64,000 bases of DNA from Ignavibacteria bacterium (GTDB lineage: Bacteria; Bacteroidota; Ignavibacteria; Kapaibacteriales; UBA4661), in assembly GCA_947459425.1 (NCBI GenBank), contig CANHDJ010000011.1, positions 11,652 to 75,651 of the forward strand, written 5' to 3'. Position 1 is the stretch's first letter. Each line of letters starts with the position of its first letter. Under the pieces are notes generated by a model. That model was not told where the DNA came from and searched no databases. It saw nothing but the letters and a program-made list of their open reading frames with translations. Positions 46,566-64,000 of this stretch are shown here, in pieces. Position numbers and translations under genes: made by a program.

Positions 46566-49500
46566 CTATCTCTTCACCATACGCTGCCGCAGAACACGAC
46601 CATCCGCCGCCTCGACAACCACCATGTATGCACCCGCGCCAAGCGCCGACACATTCACCACACCAGAAACAGTGCGCTCTTCCAGCACTACACCGCCGCG
46701 CATATCGTACAGCCGTACCGTGCGCATTCCCACGCCGCCTACACGCAATTCCCCGTCCACAGGGTTCGGGTAAACACTCAACTCCTGTGAAGCGCTCTGT
46801 TGATGCTTTCCAGTGACTATCTCCGCAATCTCCAACCCCGAAGCCGTGTTCGCCCACACCCGATCGCTCTGCTCCGCCCCCAATGCCGCTTGGAACGATG
46901 CCGTACTTTCAAAAAACGAACGTGGCAAAAGTACACCATGTGCTTGGCGGTCGGAGTTATTGACCAGAAGCGAAACCGTTGGCGAATTGGGCGTGAGGCG
47001 GAACGTGGACGGGATTTGTGCCATAAACGCCGTGTCGCTGTTTTGTGACAAAAGCGCAAGCGGCGCACCGCCAAGCGTCGAGCGAATATCGATAAGGAAA
47101 TTTATTCCTCGCACCCGCAGTATTCCGCCGCTTTGCAGCGTTACTCCCAGAATCGTCGGTGGTGGGCGGCGATTGATGCGCACAGAAGCACTGGTGCTTT
47201 GCCCATCGGTATTGGCGAGGCGCAGCGCCAGCGTGATGCCGCCTACATCGTTGAAGGAAGCGGGGATTTCCACAATCGCTTCGGTCGAAGACGGCACGGT
47301 GACTCGTGCCGGAGCATCATTCAGCCATGCCGTTGCAGTGCGAAAGATGCCCGTTCCCACAAGCCGCACACTGAAGGCAGAGCCGGAAGCCGTCGTGGAG
47401 CGCACCAGCGATTCCGCCCGCAGCTGTGGTGCTGCGCCCAATGTGACGGTGAGCGTGGTCGAAGTCGTCTGTCCGTCGGGGTTGGTGATCGTGATGGTTT
47501 TTATGCCGACGGACTGCAATATGCCCGGAAATGTGGTCTCCAAGACTGGTGCTGTCACGCTTTTCACGCCCACACTCACGCCCGTTCTGCCGTCGCTGGC
47601 TTGCACTCGCGCTCCGGCAAGGAAATCTGCACCCGAAAACGCAAGCGGAATATCCTCTCCCGTAGCTGGAAAACTCGCCGGAGAAGCCGTGATGATGCGT
47701 GGTGGGGGAAGGCGATTGTAGCGGAGTCCCAGCCCACTCATGTCGGCATTTGCGCCCGCGCCGCCTGTCAGCACAACACGGTCGTTGACAGGAACGCCGC
47801 CGACAGTGGCGGTGATTGTACCGTCGTTGACGACGACAAAGTTCGTAACAGGTACGCCACCAATGAGCAGCCCCGTCGCGCCCGTAAACCCTGAGCCACT
47901 CAGGGTGATGGGCGCACCAAAGCTGAGATTGCTAGTCGAAAAATTCCCCAGCACGGCAGATTGTGGCATGGAAACGCCGGAAGCCGCACTACCACTTGCG
48001 CCAGCAGTTCCCACAAAAAAGCCGCCCAAGGTGCTTAACCCAGCAGGCGAGGAGACGATGACGAGTTGCGCCCCACCTGTGACGATAGTTCCACTACCGA
48101 CAACGGCGGTGATTTGGGTGTTGCTGTTCACGACAAAACTTGCTGCGGGAACACCGCCGAAGCTGACCGAAGTTGCGCCTGTGAAGCCTGTGCCTGTGAT
48201 GACGACCGTTGTGCCAGGACTGGTGCGGTTGGGGGTGAAGGAGGTAATGCCCATCACGCCGACGGTGATGGAGATCGGAACAGAAGCAAGAGTACCACCG
48301 CAATTAGCGGCTTGGACAACAAAGGGGCCAAACGTACCAAGTATTGTAGGTGTACCAGAGAGAACACCCGTCCCCGACAATGACAAGCCCGGTGGCAATG
48401 CTCCCGACTGGAGAGAGAAGGTGAGCGGTGCGCCGCCATTGGCAGTAAACGTATATGTGTAGGGCTGCCCCAGAATGCTAAAGGGTGGTGTGGCAGTGGC
48501 AGCAGTAAAAAGTGTAGGCGGTGGTGGAGGGGGAGAAATTTTGCGGATGAGGCTGTTGCCATTGTCCGCCACATAGATATTTCCAGCGGCATCGGCGCAG
48601 ATTCCGGCAGGAGCACCAAATTGCGCGGTCAAGGCGCAACCGTCAGCCGAGCCTGCCCCGCCGCTTCCAGCGTAGGTAGTAACATTGCCACTGCCGTCAA
48701 TTTTGCGGATGCAGCGGTTGAATTGATCCGCCACATAGATATTCCCAGTGGCATCGGCGCAGACTCCGCTAGGATAGTCAAACTGCGCGGTAGCGGCGGC
48801 TCCGTTGGCAAAGCCTGCCGTGCCGCTTCCGGCGTAGGTGGTTACGTTCCCGCTGCCATCAATTTTACGGATGCGGTTATTGCCCGCGTCTGCCACATAG
48901 ATATTCCCAGCGGCATCGGCGCAGACTCCGACAGGGGAGTCAAACTGCGCAGTGGCTGCTGCTCCATTGACGAAGCCGAATGCCCCGCTTCCGGCGTAGG
49001 TACTTACATTGCCACTGCCGTCAATTTTGCGGATGCGGCTGTTGTTTAGGTCTGCTACATAGATATTCCCAGCGGCATCGGCGCAGACTCCGAAAGGATT
49101 TGAAAACTGCGCAGTGGCGGCTGCTCCATTAGCAAAACCTCCCGTTCCGCTTCCAGCGTAGGTACTTACATTGCCGCTGCCGTCAATTTTGCGGATACGC
49201 TGGTTGCTTATGTCTGCTACATAGATATTCCCAGCGGCATCGGCGCAGACCCCGTTAAGATTGTCAAACTGTGCAGTGGCGGCAACTCCATTAGCGAAAC
49301 CTGCCGTACCAGTTCCAGCGTATGTGGTTACATTGCCGCTGCCGTCAATTTTGCGGACGCGATTGTTGAAGTAATCGGCCACATAGATATTCCCAGCGGC
49401 ATCGGCGCAGACTCCGCCAGGACCGTTAAACCGGGCTGTAGCGGCTGCTCCATTGGCGAAGCCTGGAAAGGCTCCGGCGTAGGTAGAAACGGTTTGCGCG

Positions 49501-49622
49501 TGTGCAGTGTGCAGCAGAAAAGGGAGCAAAAGGACACATAGCCATCGCTGTAAAATTTTGATTGTTATAGGCTTATGGGGAGATATGGGGGCAGGTAAAT
49601 GCTGCAATATCATAGCAAACAT
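46566..49622 (-). CDS. Secreted surface protein: six-bladed NHL-repeat propeller, several IPT/TIG-like Ig domains and a T9SS type-A C-terminal sorting domain
   Basis: Signal peptide (WLCVLLLPFLLHTAHA). There are six repeats of GNIYVAD..N.IRKIDGSGNV.TYAGSG. IPT-like segments include TVVITGTGFTGATSVSFGGVPA. The C-terminus SVYPNPVDGELRV...VRLYDMRGGVV...LGAGAYMVVV is typical of TIGR04183-type CTDs. The track ORF (to 49883) was trimmed because its first 87 codons read through a repeat element. Confidence 0.88.
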   Translation of the reverse strand: MFAMILQHLPAPISPHKPITIKILQRWLCVLLLPFLLHTAHAQTVSTYAGAFPGFANGAAATARFNGPGGVCADAAGNIYVADYFNNRVRKIDGSGNVTTYAGTGTAGFANGVAATAQFDNLNGVCADAAGNIYVADISNQRIRKIDGSGNVSTYAGSGTGGFANGAAATAQFSNPFGVCADAAGNIYVADLNNSRIRKIDGSGNVSTYAGSGAFGFVNGAAATAQFDSPVGVCADAAGNIYVADAGNNRIRKIDGSGNVTTYAGSGTAGFANGAAATAQFDYPSGVCADATGNIYVADQFNRCIRKIDGSGNVTTYAGSGGAGSADGCALTAQFGAPAGICADAAGNIYVADNGNSLIRKISPPPPPPTLFTAATATPPFSILGQPYTYTFTANGGAPLTFSLQSGALPPGLSLSGTGVLSGTPTILGTFGPFVVQAANCGGTLASVPISITVGVMGITSFTPNRTSPGTTVVITGTGFTGATSVSFGGVPAASFVVNSNTQITAVVGSGTIVTGGAQLVIVSSPAGLSTLGGFFVGTAGASGSAASGVSMPQSAVLGNFSTSNLSFGAPITLSGSGFTGATGLLIGGVPVTNFVVVNDGTITATVGGVPVNDRVVLTGGAGANADMSGLGLRYNRLPPPRIITASPASFPATGEDIPLAFSGADFLAGARVQASDGRTGVSVGVKSVTAPVLETTFPGILQSVGIKTITITNPDGQTTSTTLTVTLGAAPQLRAESLVRSTTASGSAFSVRLVGTGIFRTATAWLNDAPARVTVPSSTEAIVEIPASFNDVGGITLALRLANTDGQSTSASVRINRRPPPTILGVTLQSGGILRVRGINFLIDIRSTLGGAPLALLSQNSDTAFMAQIPSTFRLTPNSPTVSLLVNNSDRQAHGVLLPRSFFESTASFQAALGAEQSDRVWANTASGLEIAEIVTGKHQQSASQELSVYPNPVDGELRVGGVGMRTVRLYDMRGGVVLEERTVSGVVNVSALGAGAYMVVVEAADGRVLRQRMVKR
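48540..49500. repeat. Six tandem 162-bp coding repeats (NHL blades) with long near-identical DNA stretches
   Basis: The string ACATAGATATTCCCAGCGGCATCGGCGCAGAC recurs at a 162-nt (54-codon) period. Confidence 0.7.
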
Positions 49623-50076: not shown

Positions 50077-50367
50077 TCACAATGGCAAACCGCCCGACAT
50101 ATCCTGTTTGGAATGGACAATAGCCAATATGATCACATCAGCATCAACGATGCCATAGATAAGCCGATAAGAGTACACCAGAAGTTCACGGATATTCTCG
50201 TCATTGAGCTCCGGCACAATACGCCCCATGCGCGGAAACTCCGCCAGCATTTCGCTTTTACGCACAAGTTCTTGCGTAACGCGCTTGGCATACATAGGAG
50301 AATCGGCTGCAATAAAATTATGCAATCGCTTCAAACGCTCTTTGGCGGGATTTGTCCAGCTTGCCAC
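50077..50367 (-). CDS. Type II toxin, RelE/ParE family
   Basis: (V)ASWTNPAKERLKRLHNFIAADSPMYAKRV...FPRMGRIVPELNDENIRELLVYSYRLIYGI...ILAIVHSKQDM matches the ParE/RelE pattern. The start is GTG at 50367. The rest of track ORF 50077..50838 is read-through of the antitoxin region and repeat copy C. Confidence 0.8.
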   Translation of the reverse strand: MASWTNPAKERLKRLHNFIAADSPMYAKRVTQELVRKSEMLAEFPRMGRIVPELNDENIRELLVYSYRLIYGIVDADVIILAIVHSKQDMSGGLPL

Positions 50368-50570
50368 TGCTCTATCTCGCGCTTGAGGTCGCTGAGTGCC
50401 GTTGTCTGGCTGTCTGCCGCAGCCTGTACGCCTTGCCGAACCTGCTCCAATACATACAGCCGATACATCATTTCTTCGGTCGTGGCGTTCTCTGGTAACG
50501 ATGTGAGTGCTTGTAAAGCAGCGTGTTTGGGGCTGCTGTTCTGACCAACAATAGAGGTAAATGCTTGCAT
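50331..50570 (-). CDS. Putative cognate antitoxin (79 aa)
   Basis: A small ORF immediately upstream of, and overlapping, the toxin. It has the motif EEMMYRLYVLEQVRQGVQAA...LKREIEQW seen in antitoxins paired with this ParE subgroup (from memory). Confidence 0.7.
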   Translation of the reverse strand: MQAFTSIVGQNSSPKHAALQALTSLPENATTEEMMYRLYVLEQVRQGVQAAADSQTTALSDLKREIEQWQAGQIPPKSV

Positions 50571-50962: not shown

Positions 50963-51027
50963 GAAAGTCGGACACTATTTTTTGCAAATTCGAGAAAGTC
51001 GGACGTTCATTCGAGAAAGTCGGACAC
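50963..51027. promoter_or_regulatory. Three direct copies of GAAAGTCGGAC(A/G); the last two lie inside a 21-bp tandem ATTCGAGAAAGTCGGAC. Candidate operator array 140-200 bp upstream of the giant ORF.
   Basis: Copies at 50963-50975, 50994-51005 and 51015-51027, read directly from the sequence. Confidence 0.4.
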
Positions 51028-51177
51028 AATAAAAAAAAACATTTCCTTGCTTTTTCGTATTTTTGTAGCCTGTACCGAACATAGTTTTTTTGTTTCTTTG
51101 TGTCGACTCTTCATTCGTATCGGTATCAAACTGTGTTTTCCCTTTCTTGTTGCTTCTCTCATTTCATGGTGAACTTT

Positions 51178-54100
51178 ATGAACCTCTCCCGTACTCGTTT
51201 CGTTGTTGTCAATTTCTTGACGCTCCTTTGTTTTTTTGCCATCGCCGGAACAAATCTATCCTTGTGGGCAGCCACCTTTACCGTTACCAATACCAATGAT
51301 GCCGGAGCAAGCTCTTTGCGGCAGGCTATTCTTGATGCCAATGCCACTGGAGGCGCTACCGCAGTCGCACCACACATCATAGACGCAACGGGCGTAACAG
51401 GGACGATTACTCTAGCTTCAGCACTTCCGGCATTGAATAACCACATCACCATCAATGGTCCCGGTGCGGCTCTGATTGTCAGTGGCAATAACCTCTTCCC
51501 CGTGTTCTTTGCCAGCCAAACAGCACCGTTCACCATTCAGCTTAATAATTTTACGATTACCAATGGTCGGGCGCAAGGTAGTAATGGCGGTACTGGTGGT
51601 GTTGCAGGTGGTGGTGGTGGTGGTGGTGGTTTTGGAGGTGGATTGTTTGTTAATCAAGGAAGCATCACATTACAAAACATGATGTTCTCTGGCAACCAAG
51701 CCATCGGCGGTAATGGTGGTGCGGGCGGTGGTGGCAATGCTCCGGGAGGAATTGGCGGAACCCCATCCCCGTCAGTGCTTGGTACAGGAGGAACAAGCCC
51801 CTCTGGTAATCCGCCAGCAGCAGCGAATTGTGGTGGGAGGAACGGTACATTTGGCGGTGGCGGGAGCGGCGGCGCAATTGGTCCAGCTTTTTGCAACGGA
51901 TATGGCGGTGGTGGCGGTGGATTCGGTGGCGGTGGCGGTGGCGGCAGTTTTGGAGGTGGCGGTGGCTTAGGTGGTGGTCCATTTGGCGGTGCTGGTTCTG
52001 CGGGCAGCGCGTGTTCATATGGTGGTGCTGGTGGTGCTGGTGGTGGGCTTGGTGGTGCCGTATTCGTCGCTTCGGTGGCAACGTTTACGATGACAGGATG
52101 CACCTTTACAAGTAATTCCGCCACTGGTGGAACTGCTGGCAATAATGGTGGTTGTGGTGGTGCCGCTACAAACGGTCAAGGCAAAGGCGGCGCAATCTTC
52201 ATCCAAGCAGGCGCAACGGCAACCGAACTCGCTACAACGTACACCGGGAATACTGCCGGAAGTGCAGGAACGGCATATTTCAATCTTCCGCAAGACAACC
52301 CCAATGTGTGGGGAAATCTGAGTGGAACGTATTATTATCAATCCGGCGACCCGTCTGTGCCGGGGAATTGGAACTCTCTTCTTGGCGGTGGTGGCATTCC
52401 GGCAATTAATTTTACGACGGGCGGCGAAACATTTATTGTTCCGGCGACACGCACCGCAAACATCACCGTTAGCGATATTACCATCGGCTTGGGCGTTACC
52501 TTTCAAGTAGATCTCGGCGGCACACTGACCGTCGGAAGCGGCAGAGCAATCACCAATAATGGTGCGGTTACTGTTGCGGGGCTGTTCCGTCAAGATGGCG
52601 GATCGAGCTTTACTAATGCGGGGACGTTCACCGTCAATGCCGGAGGAACACTGCGAGTTCTGGATAATCCGACCATAACCGGAACGGCATTTGTCTATTC
52701 CGCCGCGACCTCGCTGCTGGAATATACCGGGACAACTGCCCGAATAACCTCCATCGAATTTCCTGCCGCTATGTCCGGCTCGGTAACGGTGGACAATACC
52801 GCCGGAATCACGATGAATGCTCTCAAAACGCTCAGTGCAACAAGTGTGGTGACGTTGACAAACGGAGAGCTTATCAATACGGCGTTTGCTTCCAGACTTG
52901 TTATGAACAATACGACCGCCGGAGCATTTACCCGCACCAACGGCGTTGTGAACGGCTATGTTGAGCGCCTTGTGCCAAGCAACGGTACGCCATATACTAT
53001 TCCTGTCGGTGTCGGCGCTTCGTATTTACCGTTAGAATTTACGCCCACAGCCGGCGCGGGAACAAACATCGTTGCCCGCGCCTACGCTGGTGCAAGTCCG
53101 GGTACCCCCGGATCGGGTATGACAAGTTTGAACGCTTTTGGCTATTGGGAAGTGCTGACGAGTGCCGGGACGCGCAATGGAACGGTAAGCCTCACGCCTT
53201 CCTCAGTGCTGCCAGCCGGAAATGCTGTTGCTTTAGCAGCAACGGTCGGCGGTGCATACAACAGCATTGGTCCTCTGAATTTTGCGGGTGGTGCTAGCAT
53301 TACACAAACCCTTGCGAATGCGTACACCACTACGTCAGGTTTTCTTGTGACGGGTGTGGTGGGGCAGTATTACTACAATAATGCCAACGTATTTCCGGGC
53401 GGTGCAAATAACCCTGCAAACTGGGATACAACACCCGGCGCGGGTTATGGCACGGCGGCAGGAAATTTTACTTCGTTGGGAACGAGCTTTTTCGTTGAAA
53501 ACGGTGCAACCGCAACGCTTACCGCTAATTTGACTATCGGCACGGCTTCATCGGGAACAAATTTCACCATTCAAAGCGGCGGAATGCTGAACACAGTGGG
53601 CTTTGTGCTGACAATAGGTGGCAATAACGGCGCATTTACCGCCCAAAATAACTCTACTATTCGCTTGGCACATATTCAAGGGCTGCACGGCACCGCCAAT
53701 AATCAAGGCGCAATCCAAGTCCCGCTTGCGCCCGTCGGTATCACCATCTCCTATCTCGGCAACGTTAATTTCTTTTTCGACCCGCCGGCACCTGCTGGCG
53801 GGTATTCGATGAATATCGGGGCGACAACGAACAAGCCCGCCCTGACTGTCTGCGGAAATCTTACCATGAATCAAACCGGTCTCAATTCGTGGATGCTTGG
53901 TAGCTCTTTAACCGTAAACGGTACGTTTACCTTGCAAACAGGCAATTTTAATCTGACGGGTGTCGGGGTTTCCACCTTAACCTTGGCAGGTACCGGAAAT
54001 GTGGTGATGAGCGGGCGAGTAATGACCATCGGTACAAATTTTGTCTTGGCAAATCCAAACGACCTGACCATTCAAAACGGTATCGGTCAGTTTATTGTTT

Positions 54101-57100
54101 CCAGTGTGAATCAATTTCCGTTTGTAACGGGTATGCCCATTACTTATCAGCCCGGGTCGCGGTTGGCGTACAACAATCTCGCTCCTGCACTCAGCCCTGG
54201 TTTAGAATGGCCGTCCACGATGGACGGCGACATTCTCACTAATGTTGCTTCGGGGGCAATCACGCTTCTCGCGCCCCGCACTCTTTCCGGCACAGGCACT
54301 ATCAATTTTGCCAACGTCATCAACACCGCATCGGGTTTGCTGACGGTGAATAACACCAACGCCGGAGCCGTAAGCTACTCTTCGTCGGGGCGCATACTCG
54401 GTCCTCTTCGCCGCTTACTTCCTGATGCGGGCGGTGCAGGCACGTGGCAATTCCCCATGGGCGTGGGCGCAAGCCAACTTCCGTTTGCGATTGTCAATCC
54501 TGCCGTAGGAAACTCATCACCCTTAATTGAAGTAGAAGCATTTGCCGGACCAAGCGGTAGTGCCGATGGTACAACGCTTACCGCTCTTTCGGGGGCGGAA
54601 TACTGGCAGGCGCGTTTGGTGAGCGGTACATTCTCCACAGGGCAGATGCAAGCCGCAAAAACAGGCATTGCTGCGCCGACAGTCGTTGGCTCCTCGACCA
54701 CACTTGCGGGAACGATGTATGCGTCCACTGGTCCGAACACGTACCCGGGCGGTGTGCCTCCAGCAGCGCGGCGCTCCGTCGCCGAGACGCTTACGGGCGC
54801 ATTCACATACTTTGCGCTTGGAACACAGATTATCCCTTCCATCTACTACTATTCTGCCGGCGACCCGAGCAATGCGACGAACTACTGGTCGAACATTGGC
54901 GGAACGGGTTTTCAAGGCGTAAGTTTTGGTACGTCCGGGCAGACATTCATCATTCCAAACACCTACACAACGACTGTTCCGGCAGCAAATATCGCGCTTT
55001 CAGCGGGGGTAACGCTGCGAGTGGCGAACGGCGGAACGCTGAATGTCGGCGCTAATGCCGTAACAGGTGCCGGAAGTTTCGACCTCCAAGCAGGCGGAAC
55101 ACTGAGAACATCGAATACCCAAGGAGTGAACGGACCAGGACCCGGCGCAGGGTTTGGGGCTATTCAAACAACGACCATCAACTACGACCCGCAAGGCAAC
55201 TATTACCTTGATGTGTCGTCTATGAGCAATCTCAATTTTGCTGCTGTTGCCGGAAAGCCTGCTATCACCGATGCACGAACCCTCACTATCGTCGGTAATA
55301 ATCAAGGAACACTCCGCACGAGTTTGAATGTGAGCATCTCATTAACGATTAACTGCTCCGTGGCGGGTGCGGGGCTGAATCTTATCGGAACTACCCCACA
55401 GACTCTCACGCTCAGCGGCACAGGAAGTCAGGTGCAAGCAGGCTCACTCAGGGTGGGAGAGTATTTCACTTTGGTAAACGGCACCGTGTTGACCGTTCAG
55501 AATGCCGCTTCGCTGCAAATGGTGAGTACAATTAGTACGCCGCCGTTTCCTGCTGTTATCGGAACGCCCGTGAATTACGCATCAGGCGGTATTTTGCGCT
55601 ACAACGACATTATCACGGGAACGATGCCGACCGGGGCAGAACTGCCTGCTACTATGCTCGGTGATGTAGTTGTCAACCGCACGGGACCTGTTTCCCTCAG
55701 CGCACCGACAACGTTGAACGGTACGCTTACCTTCTCGTCTGGGCGTATTCAAACCACGGCAACTAATCTTTTGACCATCGGCAATCCTGCCCCGACTGCC
55801 ATCATCGGTGCAACAGCGACTATGTGTGTGCAAGGTCCGCTCGCCCGCGCTATTACCACTGCCGCGAGCACGTACACCTTTCCCGTCGGTGGTGGCACAG
55901 CACCAACATACACACCCGTAACCTTTGCCTACACATCTGCCGCACCTGCTTCCACCGTTGTAACCGTCGAGGGCTTCAACGCTGCTACTCCCGGCACACC
56001 CGGCGGCGCGTTGGGAAGCCTCAGTTCGACGGAGTATTGGCGTGTGAATCCGAATAATGCTGTTCCCAACGTAACGCTCACATTTACCCGCAATGCAGCC
56101 ATTCCAGCAGGGAACACGCTCAGTAATTCCGCAACGGCAGGAGGAACATACAATCCTGTCGCAAGCAACATCGCCAGCCCAAGTATCAACAATGCCCCAG
56201 CGCTTGCGTCGCTTGCTGCGGGTGATGGTTTTTACAGTATTGCTATCCCGGCGGTTGCCTATTACTATGAATCCGGCGACCCCGCAGCACCGGGAAGCTG
56301 GGGAACAACCTCTGGTGCAGGTTTAGGAACAGCCGCCACGAACTTTACGACACCGGGAAGCATATTCGTGGTGGAAAATACTTACACAACGGCTGCGGCA
56401 TCAGCAAATATCTCACTCGGTGCAAGTGTTACGATGCGAGTGCTGAATGGCGGTACGTTGAATCTCGGTATTCGTTCGCTAATTGGTACAGGTTCGTTTG
56501 ATTTGCAAGCGGGCGGTACACTACGCACTTCTCGTACGGACGGCATCAACGGAATATCGGCAGCAACAGGTGCAATCCAAGTAACGGGCAGCGCAACCTA
56601 CAATAACGCCGCTAATTATTGGTTCGACAGCCCAGTTGCTGCCGCTGACCTCAATTTTGCGGCGCAAGGTACAAAAGCAGCTATCACGCAAGCAAACAAT
56701 ATCACTATTACTAGCCCGACTCCCGGTGTACAATGGACGCTTGGTACTCCTCTGATAGTGGATGGCACACTCAGCATCACGCAGTCGCAGCTAAGACTGA
56801 TTGCTGCTGCCTCTTCTACATTGACGCTAAACGGACCGACTCTCATAAATACACAGGGAGAAATACGGGTTGGCAGTAATTTTCAGGTCAATAACCTTGG
56901 CACAATGACTGTTGGGGCAAATGCCTCATTTACTATTGCACCCACAACCCTAGCGCCGATACCGTTTATTGGCAATAGCCCTATATACACCAATACAACA
57001 AGTAGATTGTTCTATTCGAACAGCATCGGAATCACCACAGGCGCAGAACTGCCTGCCACCATGCCGGGAGAGCTTGCTGTTAATGGCTCTGCACCACTCA

Positions 57101-60100
57101 CCTTAGCGGCGGGCTTAACAACCATCACGGGATTCTTTGGTGTTGCACCTTCGTCGTTCCTCAACACCGGAAGCACAAATATGCTCCGTATTGACCAAGT
57201 AGCAGGTGGTGACGTACTTGGATATCTAGGGATAGTCAATGGTCCCGTGCAGTGGAATTTGCTGGTAGGAACCTCCGCCAATCGTTGGCTGCCCGTAGGC
57301 AAATCTGCTACACCGCTTTGGGTACAGTTCGATTACAATGCCGCTTCGGGCGGGCTGTTGGAATTTGAGGCGTTTAATACAGGCAGTGGCGGTATGGTCG
57401 GCACAGGGATTTCCACCGTGAACGGCAGCGAATACTGGACAGTCAAGCAACTCAGTGGTGGTGCGGTATCAATTCAACCAACCTTGGTTAGTGCGGCAGG
57501 TACCGGATCCGGAAAAGCTATTGCGACATCAACTTTGCAAATGGGAACCTATAACACCGCCAGCCCTACGACATATAATGCTTTCGGTTTCTCCGGTAAT
57601 TCGTATAATCAAGCCAACAATAGTTTTTCTCTCCTAGGTCCAACGACGTATATAGCGATGGGGAATGCTATTCCGACGTATTATTATGAATCCGGCGACC
57701 CCTCTGTGCCGGGAAGCTGGGGAACAACCTCCGGTGCTGGTTTGGGAACACCTGCGACCAGTTTTGCTACACCCGGACAGCTCTTTGTCGTTGAAAATGG
57801 CTATACGACAAGTCCGGTTCCCGCAGCAAATATTTCTCTCGGCAATAGTGTAACGATGCGTGTGCTGGCAGGCGGTACGTTGAACATGGGTACTGTTTCC
57901 CTTGCTGGCACAGGTTCATTTGATTTGCAAGCGGGCGGTACGCTTCAAACCTCCAACCCTCTCGGTATCAACGGTATTGGCGGAGCGATTGATGTTCCTG
58001 CAGCAAATATCACCTACAGCCCAACGGCAAACTATATCTTCGGCGCACTGGCAGCGAGTGGAACGTGTAATCTCGGATCAGTCGGAGGAAAGCCCGCTAT
58101 TACGCAATCTCAAAATGTAACCATCAATCCGGGTGCCACAAGATCATGGTCAATGAATACACCACTGAACGTGGCGGCAACGGGCGCACTGACTATTTCG
58201 TCAGGACAATTCCAGTATTCCGGCGCTACGCTGACACTGAACTCTGCCACCAATACTCTTGCTTCGGGAGCGGAAATACTGATATTGGGTGGCACAACGC
58301 TGAATAATCTTGGCACCTTTACGGTTGATGGCGTGTTTACACCGTTTAGCCAGCCCCTTACGTTCACGGGAAATTCACCCACATTCACTGCCGCAGGCGA
58401 ACTCCGCTACGGCAATGGCTTGGGAACATACAACACCAGCCTTGAGTTTCCCGCTTCCGCGATGCCGGGTAGGGTGTCGCTTTATGGTGGGATTACCGTA
58501 AACTTAACAGCACCGCGCACCATTGGCGCAACAGGAATCTTACAGCTTGGCGGTATCTTGAATACAAGCGGCGGACTTTTGACCATCAATAACCCGCTAA
58601 CAGGCGCTATCACTGGCGGTTCAGCAACGTCGTATATTGACGGACCGCTTGCTCGTGCTTTGCCTGCCGGAGCAGGTGTAGGGCAGTGGCTGTTTCCTGT
58701 TGGTAAAGTCGGAACATATCTGCCCTTCGCTATCAACACTCCAACCTCCGGCGGTGCAGGTTCGACCGTGCAAGTAGAGGCATTTAACAGCGCTCCTGTC
58801 GGTGGCTCTGCCGATGCGACCACCCTTCTCGGACCTCTCGGCAGCGAATATTGGCAAGCACAAGTAACCACAGCACCAGGGTCATTTACGAGTGGTTTCG
58901 TGCAAGCAGCCAGAGCGGGTATAACGGCAACAAACAGTATCGGCGCAAGCACGATTGCGCCTCCGACGGCAACCACGTATTCCTCCAATGGCGGCAACAC
59001 GCTGGGAACACTAAGCGCGATTTCCTCGCTTACCCGCACTGCGACGGATAATCTTGCCGCGCCAACGTATTTTGCGGTGGGAACGGCAATAATTACCTAC
59101 TACTACAACAACGCCAATGTCTTTCCAGGCGGTGCAAATAACCGTTTGAATTGGGATACCAGTCCCGGCGTAACTTACGGCACAGCAGCACCAAACTTCA
59201 CCACCGCAGGAACAGCATTTTCGATTGACGCTGGCTCGACGGCAGTGCTGACGGCAGACCTTCCTTTTGGTGCGGGCGCAAACAACGTAACACTCACCGT
59301 TCCAAGCGGCGCAACGCTGAACACGGGTATATCTGCCGTACAGTTTGGAGGAAATAATAGCCGCTTCAATCTTCAAAACGGCGGAACCCTGCAAACAAGC
59401 CATGCAAGCGGTATCAATGGTACCAGTAATGCTGATGGTGCGGTACAAATCAACCCGCCTCTGACAACAGGCGTAGTCATCAGCTACGGACCTACGGCAA
59501 ATTATGTTTTGGGGGCAGTCGGCGCAACCACGACGGCATATTTTCAGGATATTTCCGGCAACAAACAAGCAATCACCCAAGCCGCAAGCCTTACCGTTAA
59601 TCCGGGTGCCTTACGAACGTGGCTTATCTCCGGCGGACCGCTCACGATTTCTCCGGGAGCATTAACTGTGCAAAGCGGTACGTTGTCTCTGAGTGCAAGC
59701 CTTCTGACGCTTGGCGGTGCGGGCAGCATCGTACAAAATGCAGCAGCGCTCCAACTGAACGGTGGCGCACAGATAGTCAATACGGGCGGTCTAACTATTC
59801 AAAGTGGCGGTAGGTTTGAAGTAGCAGGTGTTACCACGCTTCCGATTGTTGCCACAAACCCGATTAGCTACGCGCTTGGCAGCAATCTGAGTTATTTTTC
59901 GCATCCTGCACTCTCAACAGGGCTGGAATTTCCTTCCCCGATGGATGGCAATGTCTCGGTGCAAAGCGGTGGTCCGCTTATGCTCAATGGCGCAAAATCA
60001 CTCAATGGCATCTTTGGAATATCGGGTGTGCTTATCACCGATAATACAAATATGCTCACGGTTGCCAATACTGCGGCGGCAGCAGTTATCTACGGTGCAG

Positions 60101-63100
60101 GTGGTGAGGTGCGCGGACCCATGCGCCGTGCGTTGCCAAACGCAGGCGGCGCGGGCACATGGCTTTTCCCCGTCGGCAAAGGCGGAACATACTTGCCCTT
60201 TGCCGTGGTGAATCCTGCTGCGGGTAGCGTCGGCGCAGTGGTCGAAGCAGAGGCATACAACAGCACAAGTGGCGGTACGCCCGACGGCACGACGATTCTC
60301 GCGGCTTCACTTTCCGCCACCGAATACTGGCGGGCGCAAGTGGCAAGCGGGACGTTCTCAAACGCTCTCACGCAGGTCGGTAAAGCTGGCTTAACAGCAA
60401 CGAACATCATCGGCTCTTCAACCACTATGCCGTCTGGCGGGACATATGTATCCAACGGTGTAAATACCTTTTCCGCTGGAACACCGCCCACGCTCACCCG
60501 CACGGTGGCGGACAACCTCGCGGCGCAAACGTATTTTGCTGTCGGTACTGTTCCGCCGCCGCCGCCGATGAACGTCCAAAACAACGCCCCGCCTTTCGGC
60601 ATTCCGCCCACCACGCCTGCTTTCAATACCATGAACGCAGCTGTGGGAACAAACATCTCCATTCCTTTCAGTGCAAATCTGAATCCCGGAACGGTGAATA
60701 CACCACAATTCCGTGTGAATGGCACGATGCGCGGCTTGCGGAATGTAACAACTTACGGCGTGTCGGGTTTGAACACCGCGACGCTGACGGGCTTCACTTC
60801 AGGTCTTACTACCGGTTTTGCGCCAAATGAACAAGTATTTGTCAGCGTTACCAATGCCCAAAGCACGGGCGGCGCATTCACGCGCCCCTTTGTGATGGGC
60901 TTCCGCACACGTGCAGGAAGCGGACCGGCCCAATTTCAGCCACAATCAGTTCCCGGTGTAACACAGACATCTGGCGTGTGTGCGGGCGACTTCGACGGGG
61001 ATGGCAATGTGGATGTCGCTTTTGCATCTCAATCCGGGAATCAAGTCGTGATTCTCCGCAACCTCGGCGGAGGTGTCTTTGGTGCTCCGACTACCGTTAG
61101 TGTGGGATCAACTCCTACCGGTATTGCTGCCGGGGATATTGATAACGACGGCGACCTTGATATTGCTGTCACCAATTCGGCAAATACCATTAGCATCATT
61201 CAGAATAACGGTTCGTTCTCGTTTGCAGTTTTGGCTACTCTTTCTACGTCAAATGATCCGCGAGGTTTTGCTTTCGCTGACTTCAATGCTGACGGAATTT
61301 TGGATATTATCACGACCGCTCGGGGATCCGCGAATGTGAACTATTTTCGCGGTTTGGGTGGCGGTTCTTTTGCTGCCGGAACAGTTATACCTATTGGCTC
61401 TAGTGATGCCTACTGTCTTACTGTCGCTGATGTGGATAATGACGGTGATATTGATGCAATTATTTCTATATCCTTCGCTGATACGATACGTTTTCTTTTG
61501 AATGACGGGAACGGTAATTTTTCCCTTGGATCTGGATTAGCGGCTGGTGGTTTCCCGCGTGAGATTGTTGCTGGTGATTGGGATAACGATGGCGATATGG
61601 ATTTAGCCGTCGCAAATAGCGGCGGTCTCTCTGTCTTGACATTCATCAATAATCCAGTCGGAACCTTCACTGCTGGTGCCACTATGCCTATCGGTTTCGG
61701 CACACAACCCATTGGCTTGACATCGGGGGATTTTGACGGGAATGGCTTCCTTGACCTTGCCACAGGAAATTTGGCAAATGCCACATCTACCATTCTGATG
61801 AATACTGCTGGGGTATTTGCAGTCTCTTCTACTGTTTCAACTGGCTGGAATCCCATTAGTAATGCGGCAGCAGATTTCGACGGTGACGGCGATATTGACA
61901 TTATGACGGCAAATAGTGGGGCAGGAGCTAATCCCACACTGCTTATCAATGGTCTGTCAATGACTGTTCAAAACAACGCGCCGCCTTTTGGTATTCCGCC
62001 CGTTACGCCGACCTTTAACACGATGAATGCTGCTCCCGCAACCAATATCAGTATTCCGTTTAATCAAAATCTCAACGCCGGAACGGTAACAGCACCAAAC
62101 TTCCGCGTTCACGGCACGATGCGTGGCTTGCGGACAGCCACCTACGGTGTTGCTCCGGCAAATACTGCCACGCTGACGGGCATCACTCCAAGTTTCCTGC
62201 CGAATGAACAAGTATTTGTCAGCGTTACCAATGCCCAAAGCACGGGCGGCGCGAATACACGCCCCTTTGTGATGGGTTTCCGCACGGCGGCAGGCTTGGG
62301 TCCGGCGACGTTTGTGCAAAATGCATCTTACCCGACGGCGAATTTCGGTTATGCCATGACCACCGCCGACATCAACAACGACAACCGATTGGACATGATT
62401 ACCGCCGACCGTAGTGGTAGCAACATTCGTGTTCGTACGGGCAATGGCGACGGGACGTTTGCAGGAACATTCACCGACTTGCCCGTAAATAGCGATCCGG
62501 GACGTGTTCGTACTGCGGACTTCAATAACGACGGGCTGCCCGACCTTGTTGCTTCTTCCGAAGGTTCAAACAACGTCTCGGTACGCATGAATACAACAGG
62601 CACGCCCGGCACGTTTGGCGCGACAGTGAATTTGAACGCCGGTTCTGTCACGTATTCCGTTACGGTTGGCGATTACAACGGCGACGGCAATATGGACGTT
62701 GCTGCGACCCATCAAAGCGCGATTCGTGTATTCTTGGGGAATGGCGACGGAACATTTCAAGCCGTTGCGTCGTATTCACACGCAGGAGCAGCAGGATTTA
62801 GCAGCATTGCCGAAACAGGCGACTTGGACGGCGACGGCGATATGGATATTGCTGTTTCGCACGAAGGTTCAAACACGATTTATTCCATGCTGAATGATGG
62901 TACGGGGAAATTTGCACAAGAATATGCACAAGCCACAGGCGGCACAAGTTCTCACACGATTGCGCTTGGTGATGTGAACGCGGACGGGCGTTTAGATGCG
63001 GTTGTAACCGCCTACGGCACAAACGATGTCCGCGTATTCATTGGTGCGGGGAACGGCTCCTTTGCCGCGCCTGTTGTGTATTCGACGGGTGTCGGTTCTG

Positions 63101-64000
63101 CACCGCGCACGGTCGTGTTGGCAGATTTTGACGGCGTAAACGGCTTGGATATTGCCACCGCAAATTTAGGAACAAACACCATCGGTATTTTGCTGAACAA
63201 CGGTGGCGGTACATTTGCTGCGGTCAGCTCATACCCAACGTCGGGCATTCAGCCCGCAGGTCTTGCGATGGGGGATTTTGATGGGGATAACGATATAGAC
63301 TTGCTGGTGAATTACAGCGGCTCTGCTCTGGCAACGGTGCATCTGAACGCGCCTATTCCGACTACGTTCTACTACCGTTCCGGCGACGCTGGATTGCCGG
63401 GAAGCTGGTTCAGCACACCGAATCCGACAGGCGGCACTCCGGCAACAGGTTTTACCAGCCCCGCAACGGACTTCTACGTCATGGGCGAAAATCCGATTAC
63501 CCTGCCAACCACTGTCGCAACGGTGAATGCATCGTTTATGATTGGTCCAAACGTCAGCCTCCACGTAACCACGCCATCGGTGCTGGCAGTGGCAAACGGC
63601 GTAACGATAACGAACAACGGCTTTTTGAATGTGTCGGGCAATACCGTCCAATCATCGTCGCTGCGGCTCGTGGGAACAGGCGCGGTCGTGGGTAATACGG
63701 TAAAGTATTGGAGTACAAACGCGACGCTGGAATATCAACCGACTGGTTCGCGTTTAACGACCGATGTAGAGTTTCCACCTGCTATGTACGGCTCGGTACT
63801 TATTAGTGGTTCGCAGGTTATTATGCAGAGTAATAAGACTATCACTGGCACAACGACCATACAGCCTACTGGTGCCTTATCTACCAATGCTGCTTTTGTT
63901 CCGACCTTTGACGGTAGCCTTGTGAATGCAGGCGGCACAATGGATATTGGTCCATCAGCATCGGTGATTTTCAACAGCCGTGTTGTTGGTCCTTGGATTG
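51178..64000 (+). CDS. Giant secreted surface / adhesin-like protein, 3'-partial (more than 4,270 aa in the window). Domains: signal peptide, Gly-rich parallel-beta-helix-like head, 6-7 tandem modules of about 470 aa, and two Ig-like + FG-GAP/VCBS 7-blade cassettes.
   Basis: Frame +1 was checked codon by codon. The last upstream stop is TAG at 51082-51084, and no stop occurs through 64000. ATG candidates are 51166 and 51178 (MNLSRTRFVVVNFLTLLCFFAIAGTNLSLWA). The ORF is not in the supplied track because it has no stop in the window. No other + frame-1 ORF is listed between 51 and 64 kb. Confidence 0.9.
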   Translation, partial: MNLSRTRFVVVNFLTLLCFFAIAGTNLSLWAATFTVTNTNDAGASSLRQAILDANATGGATAVAPHIIDATGVTGTITLASALPALNNHITINGPGAALIVSGNNLFPVFFASQTAPFTIQLNNFTITNGRAQGSNGGTGGVAGGGGGGGGFGGGLFVNQGSITLQNMMFSGNQAIGGNGGAGGGGNAPGGIGGTPSPSVLGTGGTSPSGNPPAAANCGGRNGTFGGGGSGGAIGPAFCNGYGGGGGGFGGGGGGGSFGGGGGLGGGPFGGAGSAGSACSYGGAGGAGGGLGGAVFVASVATFTMTGCTFTSNSATGGTAGNNGGCGGAATNGQGKGGAIFIQAGATATELATTYTGNTAGSAGTAYFNLPQDNPNVWGNLSGTYYYQSGDPSVPGNWNSLLGGGGIPAINFTTGGETFIVPATRTANITVSDITIGLGVTFQVDLGGTLTVGSGRAITNNGAVTVAGLFRQDGGSSFTNAGTFTVNAGGTLRVLDNPTITGTAFVYSAATSLLEYTGTTARITSIEFPAAMSGSVTVDNTAGITMNALKTLSATSVVTLTNGELINTAFASRLVMNNTTAGAFTRTNGVVNGYVERLVPSNGTPYTIPVGVGASYLPLEFTPTAGAGTNIVARAYAGASPGTPGSGMTSLNAFGYWEVLTSAGTRNGTVSLTPSSVLPAGNAVALAATVGGAYNSIGPLNFAGGASITQTLANAYTTTSGFLVTGVVGQYYYNNANVFPGGANNPANWDTTPGAGYGTAAGNFTSLGTSFFVENGATATLTANLTIGTASSGTNFTIQSGGMLNTVGFVLTIGGNNGAFTAQNNSTIRLAHIQGLHGTANNQGAIQVPLAPVGITISYLGNVNFFFDPPAPAGGYSMNIGATTNKPALTVCGNLTMNQTGLNSWMLGSSLTVNGTFTLQTGNFNLTGVGVSTLTLAGTGNVVMSGRVMTIGTNFVLANPNDLTIQNGIGQFIVSSVNQFPFVTGMPITYQPGSRLAYNNLAPALSPGLEWPSTMDGDILTNVASGAITLLAPRTLSGTGTINFANVINTASGLLTVNNTNAGAVSYSSSGRILGPLRRLLPDAGGAGTWQFPMGVGASQLPFAIVNPAVGNSSPLIEVEAFAGPSGSADGTTLTALSGAEYWQARLVSGTFSTGQMQAAKTGIAAPTVVGSSTTLAGTMYASTGPNTYPGGVPPAARRSVAETLTGAFTYFALGTQIIPSIYYYSAGDPSNATNYWSNIGGTGFQGVSFGTSGQTFIIPNTYTTTVPAANIALSAGVTLRVANGGTLNVGANAVTGAGSFDLQAGGTLRTSNTQGVNGPGPGAGFGAIQTTTINYDPQGNYYLDVSSMSNLNFAAVAGKPAITDARTLTIVGNNQGTLRTSLNVSISLTINCSVAGAGLNLIGTTPQTLTLSGTGSQVQAGSLRVGEYFTLVNGTVLTVQNAASLQMVSTISTPPFPAVIGTPVNYASGGILRYNDIITGTMPTGAELPATMLGDVVVNRTGPVSLSAPTTLNGTLTFSSGRIQTTATNLLTIGNPAPTAIIGATATMCVQGPLARAITTAASTYTFPVGGGTAPTYTPVTFAYTSAAPASTVVTVEGFNAATPGTPGGALGSLSSTEYWRVNPNNAVPNVTLTFTRNAAIPAGNTLSNSATAGGTYNPVASNIASPSINNAPALASLAAGDGFYSIAIPAVAYYYESGDPAAPGSWGTTSGAGLGTAATNFTTPGSIFVVENTYTTAAASANISLGASVTMRVLNGGTLNLGIRSLIGTGSFDLQAGGTLRTSRTDGINGISAATGAIQVTGSATYNNAANYWFDSPVAAADLNFAAQGTKAAITQANNITITSPTPGVQWTLGTPLIVDGTLSITQSQLRLIAAASSTLTLNGPTLINTQGEIRVGSNFQVNNLGTMTVGANASFTIAPTTLAPIPFIGNSPIYTNTTSRLFYSNSIGITTGAELPATMPGELAVNGSAPLTLAAGLTTITGFFGVAPSSFLNTGSTNMLRIDQVAGGDVLGYLGIVNGPVQWNLLVGTSANRWLPVGKSATPLWVQFDYNAASGGLLEFEAFNTGSGGMVGTGISTVNGSEYWTVKQLSGGAVSIQPTLVSAAGTGSGKAIATSTLQMGTYNTASPTTYNAFGFSGNSYNQANNSFSLLGPTTYIAMGNAIPTYYYESGDPSVPGSWGTTSGAGLGTPATSFATPGQLFVVENGYTTSPVPAANISLGNSVTMRVLAGGTLNMGTVSLAGTGSFDLQAGGTLQTSNPLGINGIGGAIDVPAANITYSPTANYIFGALAASGTCNLGSVGGKPAITQSQNVTINPGATRSWSMNTPLNVAATGALTISSGQFQYSGATLTLNSATNTLASGAEILILGGTTLNNLGTFTVDGVFTPFSQPLTFTGNSPTFTAAGELRYGNGLGTYNTSLEFPASAMPGRVSLYGGITVNLTAPRTIGATGILQLGGILNTSGGLLTINNPLTGAITGGSATSYIDGPLARALPAGAGVGQWLFPVGKVGTYLPFAINTPTSGGAGSTVQVEAFNSAPVGGSADATTLLGPLGSEYWQAQVTTAPGSFTSGFVQAARAGITATNSIGASTIAPPTATTYSSNGGNTLGTLSAISSLTRTATDNLAAPTYFAVGTAIITYYYNNANVFPGGANNRLNWDTSPGVTYGTAAPNFTTAGTAFSIDAGSTAVLTADLPFGAGANNVTLTVPSGATLNTGISAVQFGGNNSRFNLQNGGTLQTSHASGINGTSNADGAVQINPPLTTGVVISYGPTANYVLGAVGATTTAYFQDISGNKQAITQAASLTVNPGALRTWLISGGPLTISPGALTVQSGTLSLSASLLTLGGAGSIVQNAAALQLNGGAQIVNTGGLTIQSGGRFEVAGVTTLPIVATNPISYALGSNLSYFSHPALSTGLEFPSPMDGNVSVQSGGPLMLNGAKSLNGIFGISGVLITDNTNMLTVANTAAAAVIYGAGGEVRGPMRRALPNAGGAGTWLFPVGKGGTYLPFAVVNPAAGSVGAVVEAEAYNSTSGGTPDGTTILAASLSATEYWRAQVASGTFSNALTQVGKAGLTATNIIGSSTTMPSGGTYVSNGVNTFSAGTPPTLTRTVADNLAAQTYFAVGTVPPPPPMNVQNNAPPFGIPPTTPAFNTMNAAVGTNISIPFSANLNPGTVNTPQFRVNGTMRGLRNVTTYGVSGLNTATLTGFTSGLTTGFAPNEQVFVSVTNAQSTGGAFTRPFVMGFRTRAGSGPAQFQPQSVPGVTQTSGVCAGDFDGDGNVDVAFASQSGNQVVILRNLGGGVFGAPTTVSVGSTPTGIAAGDIDNDGDLDIAVTNSANTISIIQNNGSFSFAVLATLSTSNDPRGFAFADFNADGILDIITTARGSANVNYFRGLGGGSFAAGTVIPIGSSDAYCLTVADVDNDGDIDAIISISFADTIRFLLNDGNGNFSLGSGLAAGGFPREIVAGDWDNDGDMDLAVANSGGLSVLTFINNPVGTFTAGATMPIGFGTQPIGLTSGDFDGNGFLDLATGNLANATSTILMNTAGVFAVSSTVSTGWNPISNAAADFDGDGDIDIMTANSGAGANPTLLINGLSMTVQNNAPPFGIPPVTPTFNTMNAAPATNISIPFNQNLNAGTVTAPNFRVHGTMRGLRTATYGVAPANTATLTGITPSFLPNEQVFVSVTNAQSTGGANTRPFVMGFRTAAGLGPATFVQNASYPTANFGYAMTTADINNDNRLDMITADRSGSNIRVRTGNGDGTFAGTFTDLPVNSDPGRVRTADFNNDGLPDLVASSEGSNNVSVRMNTTGTPGTFGATVNLNAGSVTYSVTVGDYNGDGNMDVAATHQSAIRVFLGNGDGTFQAVASYSHAGAAGFSSIAETGDLDGDGDMDIAVSHEGSNTIYSMLNDGTGKFAQEYAQATGGTSSHTIALGDVNADGRLDAVVTAYGTNDVRVFIGAGNGSFAAPVVYSTGVGSAPRTVVLADFDGVNGLDIATANLGTNTIGILLNNGGGTFAAVSSYPTSGIQPAGLAMGDFDGDNDIDLLVNYSGSALATVHLNAPIPTTFYYRSGDAGLPGSWFSTPNPTGGTPATGFTSPATDFYVMGENPITLPTTVATVNASFMIGPNVSLHVTTPSVLAVANGVTITNNGFLNVSGNTVQSSSLRLVGTGAVVGNTVKYWSTNATLEYQPTGSRLTTDVEFPPAMYGSVLISGSQVIMQSNKTITGTTTIQPTGALSTNAAFVPTFDGSLVNAGGTMDIGPSASVIFNSRVVGPWI
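51577..52190 (+). repeat. Extreme glycine-rich low-complexity coding region, including a (GGT)8 microsatellite at 51607-51630
   Basis: It translates as GSNGGTGGVAGGGGGGGGFGGGLF...GYGGGGGGFGGGGGGGSFGGGGGLGGGPFGGAG...GGAGGAGGGLGG, interspersed with GGAIF/FxxN-like beta-helix motifs and five Cys residues. Confidence 0.8.
52330..60552 (+). repeat. Six tandem coding super-repeats (modules M1-M6: 1038, 1476, 1416, 1419, 1419 and 1455 nt). A seventh begins at 63367.
   Basis: Module starts are marked by YYYxSGDPxxPGxW (52330, 54844, 56260, 57679, 63367) or YYYNNANVFPGGANNxxNWDT (53368, 59098). Recurring internal motifs are GTGSFDLQAGGTL(R/Q)TS, KPAITQ and LEFP...M.G. The terminal subdomain reads W.FPVG...YLPF...EAFN...SEYW. 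Confidence 0.8.
60553..63366 (+). repeat. Two tandem cassettes of about 1.4 kb, each an Ig-like (SbsA/Big_5-like) domain plus a seven-blade FG-GAP/VCBS propeller
   Basis: NVQNNAPPFGIPPTTPAFNTMNAA... aligns with TVQNNAPPFGIPPVTPTFNTMNAA.... Each cassette has seven D-x-D/N-x-D-G-x-x-D blades (for example GDFDGDGNVDVAF, GDIDNDGDLDIAV). A 50-nt perfect DNA identity links 60826-60875 to 62203-62252. Confidence 0.8.

Follow-up and report, generated by a model that had tools for sequence, protein, structure and literature searches.

An uncatalogued family of tandem modules in a giant, probably surface-exposed protein of the Kapabacteria/Ignavibacteria group

Gene architecture at the locus

The present study concerns a giant gene with tandem protein modules at the downstream end of a 64,000-nucleotide (nt) stretch of a metagenome-assembled Ignavibacteria contig (CANHDJ010000011.1, positions 11,652 to 75,651 of the forward strand); the whole of this stretch is referred to as the window, and positions are counted from its first letter. 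On the + strand a single frame, open from 51085 onward as far as the window reaches, holds all of the modules and amounts to 4,305 amino acids (aa) inside the window, with a translation of the giant protein that is free of stops for more than 4,270 residues. The likely starts of the gene are ATG 51166, which is the start called on contigs in the European Nucleotide Archive (ENA), and ATG 51178. Two independently assembled ENA metagenome contigs agree with the window over 31300-53576 with 0 mismatches, and the giant-gene products on these contigs measure 5,448 and 5,480 residues, both running off the contig ends. The modules from 52330 onward belong to the middle of one giant gene, the product of which comprises at least 5,480 aa and is incomplete at the contig end, and its host is an uncultured bacterium of the Kapabacteria/Ignavibacteria group. 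The gene contains the following features:

51166..51270, + strand: start codon and Sec-type signal peptide (MNLSRTRFVVVNFLTLLCFFAIAGTNLSLWA / ATF), from the translation and the ENA gene call
51271..52329, + strand: N-terminal Gly-rich region; 69% Thr, Ser, Gly, Ala, and Asn (TSGAN), 2.5% Asp, Glu, Lys, and Arg, with GGA[IV]F...F/TxxN-like motifs
52330..53367, + strand: module M1, 346 aa, head flavour A, a short variant without profile positions ~80-182; YYY head, BLASTP, alignment, profile
53368..54843, + strand: module M2, 492 aa, matching the profile over its full length at 606 bits; head flavour B (YYYNNANVFPGGANN)
54844..56259, + strand: module M3, 472 aa, head flavour A; YYY head, BLASTP, alignment, profile
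56260..57678, + strand: module M4, 473 aa, head flavour A; YYY head, BLASTP, alignment, profile
57679..59097, + strand: module M5, 473 aa, head flavour A; in the AlphaFold2 model, beta-solenoid at ~57679-58635 and beta-sandwich tail at ~58636-59097
59098..60552, + strand: module M6, ~485 aa, head flavour B; YYY head, BLASTP, alignment, profile
60553-60567, + strand: PPPPP linker directly after M6, from motif positions
60568..60918, + strand: bacterial immunoglobulin (Ig)-like domain Big_5, copy 1; Pfam PF13205, E 6.6e-5, scoring 24.0 bits where the cut-off is 23.6
60919..61959, + strand: FG-GAP/VCBS repeat region 1; six DxDxDG motifs, presumed seven-bladed beta-propeller
61960..62295, + strand: Big_5-like Ig domain, copy 2; Pfam PF13205, E 0.0016, 19.6 bits, below the cut-off
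62296..63366, + strand: FG-GAP/VCBS repeat region 2, from Pfam FG-GAP matches and motif positions
63367..63999, + strand: first part of module M7, which has an FYYRSGDAG head and belongs to a short subtype without profile positions ~93-216; truncated by the window edge

The 4,305-aa frame has the tripeptide YYY at six places, 52330, 53368, 54844, 56260, 57679, and 59098, where roughly 0.1 occurrences would be expected by chance (Tyr ~3%), and FYY stands at 63367. The heads are exactly where an original prediction, made from the letters alone, had placed six complete modules and a seventh, and the two head flavours, A (YYYxSGDP) and B (YYYNNANVFPGGANN), succeed one another as it had described, in the order A-B-A-A-A-B...A. 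The range of 1416-1455 nt that it had noted for M3 to M6 corresponds to 472, 473, 473, and ~485 aa, and its general module length of ~470 aa applies to M2 through M6 but not to M1 and M7, which are short variants missing part of the solenoid. The modules consist of TSGAN residues to 54-58% and of charged residues to 5-7%. Their conserved positions are aromatic, Gly, and Pro residues concentrated in the head and tail; charged positions conserved among the six complete modules number five (four Glu/Arg/Lys positions in at least five of the six, and E256 in all six) and form no cluster in the solenoid.

Upstream of the modules, the signal peptide has the typical n-h-c order when read by eye, with a positively charged n-region, a hydrophobic core, and an LWA-A site. 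The ~350 residues that follow (51271-52329) are probably another beta-helical segment. They open with 'ATFTVTNTNDAGxxSLRQAILDAN' and include Gly runs of GGGGGGGG, and a 91-residue stretch at their C-terminal end is 72% identical to its counterpart in the homologue P0061 (homologous proteins are given P numbers and loci L numbers throughout). No Pfam or NCBIfam match was obtained for this region, including to PATR (PF12951) and Chlamydial Pmp (PF02415). As a side observation, its GGA[IV]F...TxxN motifs recall the chlamydial Pmp-type beta-helix repeats.

Downstream of M6, two kinds of unit are interspersed with the modules. The whole-protein Pfam scan returned FG-GAP_3 (PF13517; E 1.3e-80, 266 bits against a cut-off of 26.9, 13 stretches) and FG-GAP (PF01839; E 2.5e-31, 107 bits) as its sole families, both at 60919-63366 and hence outside the modules. 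The segments of ~115 residues before each FG-GAP region are Big_5 Ig-like, and the second copy parallels the first closely, with opening and closing motifs common to both. The order of module, Big_5, and FG-GAP was seen again in P0064, P0067, and P0070.

Sequence conservation and evolution of the modules

All-against-all BLASTP comparison gave 31-44% identity among M2-M6 over nearly their full length (E 1e-35 to 1e-103), and M1 aligned to the other modules in two pieces. Against a 464-position profile built from the window modules, M2-M6 matched positions 1-463 at 557-618 bits, and M1 and M7 matched as split hits. In a MAFFT alignment of the modules the motifs GxGSFDLQAGGTL, KxAIT, ExPxxMxG, FPVG, EAFN, and EYW stayed in register, so that the periodicity pointed out beforehand persists under multiple alignment. 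DNA identity between modules is 41-52%, with 32-48% third-position identity at identical amino acids, and the earlier description of moderate amino-acid conservation paired with low DNA identity fits these values; local DNA stretches of 73-94% identity are short and mostly located at the heads. Tandem Repeats Finder detected short Gly-codon repeats only and no long-period DNA repeat, which is expected because the module copies are so diverged.

The window modules are 55-86% identical to their positional counterparts in other genomes, which exceeds the identity among themselves. The best counterparts are found in P0061 for M5 (86%, residues 2129-2597), P0063 for M6 (76-77%), and P0060 (56%) and P0004 (76%) for M4; counterparts of M3 are present in P0004 (61%) and P0061 (59%), and those of M7 in P0005 (61%), P0064 (59%), and P0060 (55%), with the Ig domains being 67-78% identical to P0064. 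Nei-Gojobori estimates of the ratio of nonsynonymous to synonymous substitution rates (dN/dS) for orthologous modules, comparing the window with L004, a locus of an Ignavibacteria metagenome-assembled genome (MAG), were 0.14-0.17 (0.14 for M5), and the proportion of synonymous differences (pS) in paralogous module pairs was 0.70-0.75, i.e., saturated. Saturation among paralogues together with the low dN/dS among orthologues argues that the module duplications are ancient and that each copy is under purifying selection, in keeping with the original prediction, which had preferred old, selectively maintained repeats to recent duplication. The nearest relatives of the window modules form a mosaic, each module being closest to one in a different genome, and, for one and the same pair of genomes, the synonymous divergence (dS) is 0.60 for M5 and 3-4 times as high for M3 and M6 (2.1-2.4). 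These two patterns suggest module-level exchange between lineages, or non-orthologous replacement.

Predicted fold and domain-database searches

An AlphaFold2 model of M5 was produced from an alignment of 25 module instances, comprising 5 from the window, 17 cut from relatives recovered by the profile search, and 3 full-length matches of the first search. The model has a mean predicted local distance difference test score (pLDDT) of 92.7 and a predicted template modelling score (pTM) of 0.89. Strands of 3-5 residues follow one another throughout its residues ~35-315, resembling a parallel beta-solenoid, and residues ~320-473 form a ~155-residue sandwich of longer strands. On this model, the module is predicted to consist of a beta-solenoid of ~315 residues and, after it, a beta-sandwich of ~155, which bears out the solenoid-like middle and compact terminal subdomain that had been proposed from the letters.

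Foldseek searches of PDB and BFVD with the M5 model returned nothing at E<1e-3. The weak neighbours of the solenoid are beta-helical adhesins and tailspikes, namely CBA120 TSP4, Ag43, VacA p55, tapirin, SRRP, and the Sf6 and P22 tailspikes, and the tailspike and enzyme rows stand at E>0.009 with template modelling (TM) scores <0.25 over the query. The best row was MYDGF (PDB 6svk; probability 0.98, 158 aligned columns), the length of which suggests a match to the tail sandwich, although with E 0.03, a target-normalised TM score of 0.47, a root-mean-square deviation of 8.5 A, and 11% identity it would be a topological resemblance at most, without functional implication. The MYDGF and tailspike rows were both rejected as support for a function, being too weak.

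Searches of Pfam and NCBIfam with the whole protein, single modules, and the tail alone returned nothing on the modules even at E<=1-10, and the comparison of 25 family members with Pfam one by one at E<=1 produced no consistent family and no Beta_helix, pectate lyase, or glycosyl hydrolase match. The PbH1 and Beta_helix models did not match the modules, the solenoid contains no conserved acidic cluster, and Pfam scans of the window modules gave no match to PATR (PF12951), Chlamydial Pmp (PF02415), or Pertactin. P0017 is the only listed homologue with PATR (residues 874-902, near its C-terminal end), and the A1 profile gave this protein no domain match. Some distant single-module relatives match Pfam G8 (PF10162) at the N-terminal head; Pfam scans of the window modules gave no G8 match, and a G8 identity of the window heads was rejected as unsupported, the hhalign probability against the G8 regions of the relatives being 0.9%. 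Sequence and profile searches of PDB with the module gave no significant match and one chance-level match (E 1.9), and no description of the module was found in literature searches on Kapabacteria, type IX secretion systems (T9SS), and beta-helix adhesins.

Distribution of the module family

A first word-indexed search with M5 recovered three proteins, and a profile of the modules and these three matches recovered 58, mostly carrying PF18962 (T9SS sorting domain). An exhaustive HMMER search of 1.84 billion representatives identified 1,939 clusters, counted at 50% identity, with a threshold of E<=1e-3; stricter thresholds of 1e-10 and 1e-30 leave 651 and 97. Giant proteins, in which the profile matches as many as 16 stretches, head the list; those that are named are MAG proteins of Candidatus Kapabacteria/Kapaibacteriota and Ignavibacteria, and the annotations of the relatives are generic only ('FG-GAP-like repeat-containing', 'VCBS repeat-containing', 'beta strand repeat-containing', 'hypothetical'). 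A tail-motif scan of GTDB representative genomes recovered 28 loci, in which tail identity is 56-68% for Kapaibacterium/Ignavibacteria MAGs and 28-45% for Chitinophagaceae, Bacteroidales, Cytophagales, and Flavobacteriales. The related open reading frame (ORF) of L002 spans more than 5,825 residues with ~14 modules, and local analysis of ~200 proteins and locus ORFs counted 62 with two or more tails and 31 with three or more. The piece most widely shared consists of the last solenoid coils and the sandwich (profile positions ~265-460). One module homologue, P0007 (E 1.3e-43, 35% identity, 79% of the query), is labelled Pyrinomonadaceae (Acidobacteriota), outside the range of the other named matches, and could represent a mis-binned contig or a lateral transfer.

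A local hidden Markov model of the sorting domain, built from the last 85 residues of 28 PF18962-annotated matches, detected a T9SS sorting domain in 35 homologues with at least two modules, in each case at the very C-terminal end. The multi-module proteins without a sorting domain include the closest relatives, which are contig-truncated.

The supposition that the module falls in no named Pfam family thus held up, with Pfam, NCBIfam, PDB, and Foldseek all lacking a significant match. The accompanying suggestion of a 'possibly undescribed' architecture was right in that the module is uncatalogued, yet with ~1,900 clusters it is not rare, nor is it of a new kind, since a beta-helix and beta-sandwich in a giant surface protein are familiar.

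Upstream repeats and neighbouring genes

The following features lie upstream of the giant gene:

50963..51025, + strand: three exact copies of GAAAGTCGGAC, at 50963, 50994, and 51015
50331-50570, - strand: 79-codon partner gene of a ParE-family toxin, divergent from the giant gene, like the toxin gene
50077-50367, - strand: ParE-family toxin gene, overlapping the 79-codon partner gene
46566-49613, - strand: beta-propeller protein of NHL repeats, carrying a T9SS sorting domain (Por_Secre_tail), two genes upstream of the giant gene
44562-45791, - strand: AraC-family (HTH_18) regulator gene, conserved beside the giant gene
23170-25230, + strand: methyl-accepting chemotaxis protein (HAMP and MCPsignal), in a genome also with T9SS cargo

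With a spacing of 21 nt, the last two GAAAGTCGGAC copies make up a TTCGAGAAAGTCGGAC direct repeat ~150 nt upstream of the start codon of the giant gene. This pair recurs unchanged upstream of the giant-gene orthologues of L002 (1709-1740), L003 (4625-4666), and L004 (932-963), where the flanking DNA has diverged and the giant-gene coding sequences are only ~45-60% identical, and no further copy of the GAAAGTCGGAC motif is present in the window or in the other 26 loci. The TTCGAGAAAGTCGGAC direct repeat is probably a conserved operator or promoter element, to judge from this comparison. A candidate regulator acting on it is the AraC-family protein. The gene for its L004 orthologue (1-870; 51-60% identity by tblastx) lies directly upstream of the giant gene there; the window has the NHL gene and a toxin-antitoxin pair between the two. 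The ParE gene and its partner are likely a toxin-antitoxin pair that was inserted into otherwise syntenic DNA between the NHL and giant genes. Measured from GTG 49883, the maximal ORF of the NHL gene exceeds the ENA gene call by 90 codons, and the Por_Secre_tail of its product indicates that the organism has T9SS cargo. The occurrence of a chemotaxis protein beside T9SS cargo fits the Kapabacteria/Ignavibacteria group rather than classical Bacteroidota.

Discussion

We consider it probable that the giant protein is a Sec-exported surface fibre or adhesin, probably delivered by the T9SS, in which the modules act as stalk or binding units; surface location and adhesion are what we infer from the following. 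Export by the T9SS is likely because homologues carry sorting domains and because the neighbouring NHL gene has a Por_Secre_tail. A fibre or adhesin is preferred to an enzyme on account of the composition, fold class, signal peptide, T9SS context, and Big_5 and FG-GAP units, and the TSGAN-rich, charge-poor makeup of the modules is typical of passenger and adhesin beta-helices. The protein would be exported by its Sec signal peptide, cross the outer membrane by the T9SS, and be retained on the cell surface. Composite modules are predicted to follow one another along its body, each with a parallel beta-solenoid of the right-handed type; the solenoids would differ in length, and the gain or loss of coils would account for module lengths of 346-492 aa. 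Each module would be opened by an aromatic YYY/W head and closed by the ~155-residue beta-sandwich (GP...FPVGKGG.Y.P...EAFN...EYW). The modules may function as a stiff, protease-resistant stalk, as binding units, or as both, spacing out and presenting ligand-binding elements in the form of the Big_5 Ig domains, the FG-GAP propellers, and possibly the aromatic-rich sandwich domains, so that the whole protein would work as a long multivalent adhesin or surface fibre.

Several points weigh against this picture. The C-terminus of the giant protein lies beyond the window and all contigs reached, and a sorting domain was seen neither there nor on the closest relatives, which are partial. The signal peptide was judged by eye, and the two-module AlphaFold2 model of M4-M5 (11-row alignment) reached a pLDDT of 79 and a pTM of 0.52, which does not demonstrate a rigid rod. 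The weak fold matches to phage depolymerase tailspikes also make a catalytic role formally possible.

A more speculative extension, which we regard as doubtful, would treat the ~155-residue tail as an unrecognised ligand-binding sandwich lacking any solved relative and the array as a multivalent, cassette-shuffled recognition device, in which each anciently diverged module would have its own surface or glycan target, modules would be exchanged between Kapabacteria lineages, and expression would be switched on via the TTCGAGAAAGTCGGAC repeats, perhaps by the AraC-family regulator.

Among the alternatives to a fibre or adhesin, it is unlikely that the protein is a motility adhesin of the SprB/RemA kind, that is, a very large, repetitive T9SS cargo that the cell would move over its surface in order to glide. 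SprB and RemA of Flavobacterium johnsoniae are giant, repetitive, surface-exposed T9SS cargo from the same superphylum, and the size and repetitive architecture of the window protein, the T9SS association of its family, and the family's distribution across Bacteroidota, Ignavibacteria, and Kapabacteria would suit such a role. However, the whole-protein Pfam scan gave no SprB-repeat (PF13573) match, none of the searches returned similarity to SprB, no gld or spr genes were present among the window genes scanned, and the methyl-accepting chemotaxis protein of the window points to flagellar-type behaviour. Gliding is not known for the Kapabacteria-group lineage, and nothing bearing on it was found in literature searches on Kapabacteria, T9SS, adhesins, and gliding.

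It is quite improbable that the modules are beta-helix polysaccharide lyases or hydrolases, of the pectate-lyase or tailspike-depolymerase type, with the sandwich as a carbohydrate-binding module and the whole protein as a multi-catalytic degrader of surface glycans. The top Foldseek rows for the solenoid do include the tailspike depolymerases 5w6h, 4urr, and 6c72, BFVD tailspikes, and proteins of the pectate-lyase superfamily, and among those for the tail are beta-sandwich domains from GH98, chondroitin ABC lyase, and GH63/GH65 enzymes, but all of these matches have the poor E values and TM scores given above (E>0.009, TM<0.25 over the query). The lack of a Pfam match to Beta_helix, pectate lyase, or glycosyl hydrolase families, the scarcity of charged residues (5-7%), and the scatter of the five conserved charged positions, which are not clustered in the solenoid, likewise speak against catalysis.

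Giant beta-helical filaments often carry terminal toxins, and with the C-terminus of the giant protein lying beyond the assembled sequence, the modules could in principle be only the filament of a delivery stalk for a C-terminal effector or toxin, following the logic of CdiA/FHA or of polymorphic toxins; the ParE toxin-antitoxin pair also adjoins the giant gene, though it is probably unrelated. We hold this to be very unlikely, since in complete homologues with several modules the C-terminal domain is a T9SS sorting domain and not a toxin domain, and P0060 runs on into more modules and, as read by eye from its sequence, IPT/TIG-like repeats. The notion that the repeat is a compositional or assembly artefact of low-complexity sequence rich in Thr, Ser, Gly, and Asn, to which the strongly biased composition and the metagenome-assembled contig might lend themselves, can be all but dismissed given BLASTP E values down to 1e-103 with composition-based statistics, aromatic and Pro/Gly positions in register, a high-confidence AlphaFold2 model, a dN/dS of 0.14, two independent ENA assemblies that match the window exactly over 31300-53576, and a between-module DNA identity (41-52%) too low for repeat collapse.

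The module represents an uncatalogued domain family of ~1,900 clusters with no relative in PDB, and in Kapabacteria, Ignavibacteria, and many Bacteroidota some of the largest proteins owe most of their mass to it. A family definition would turn thousands of 'hypothetical' and 'beta strand repeat-containing' labels into an architecture of head, solenoid, sandwich, and T9SS tail; the sandwich domain offers a structural target, and the family a model for the evolution of giant adhesins by module gain, loss, and exchange. Our understanding of pathways is not changed by these results and no long-standing question is opened, giant beta-helical surface proteins being expected in these bacteria.

Comparison with known systems

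The closest likenesses are the giant proteins of Kapabacteria/Ignavibacteria MAGs, P0060 (MCU0426425.1), P0061 (MBD1209843.1), P0062 (TAE24656.1), and P0064 (MBL7992119.1), which have the module family and tandem layout of the window protein. Those that bear FG-GAP, P0060 and P0064, also share its Big_5 plus FG-GAP interludes, and P0061 shares part of its N-terminal domain. The copy number and order of the modules differ among these relatives, all of which are partial and generically annotated and none of which is characterised.

Single-module T9SS proteins of Bacteroidota (Chitinophagaceae, Cytophagales, Bacteroidales, and Flavobacteriales) have the tail sandwich and last coils (~265-460) in common with the window modules at 26-45% identity, together with an N-terminal W-rich head and a C-terminal PF18962, and are annotated as 'T9SS type A sorting domain-containing protein'. 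They differ in usually having one module in 700-1,000 aa and no FG-GAP, and some have G8 at the head, unlike the window modules.

SprB and RemA resemble the window protein in the general respects discussed above, but their repeat family is unlike the window module. The passengers of type V autotransporters and other beta-helical adhesins (Ag43, VacA p55, PATR-repeat proteins, tapirins, and SRRP) share with it a parallel beta-solenoid, a T/S/G/N-rich, charge-poor composition, and a role as surface adhesins, which in the present case is a probable one. They have no sequence relationship to the window protein, which likely follows the type IX rather than the type V secretion route, and whereas theirs is a parallel beta-solenoid, that of the window protein is split into repeated units, each predicted to be closed by a beta-sandwich.

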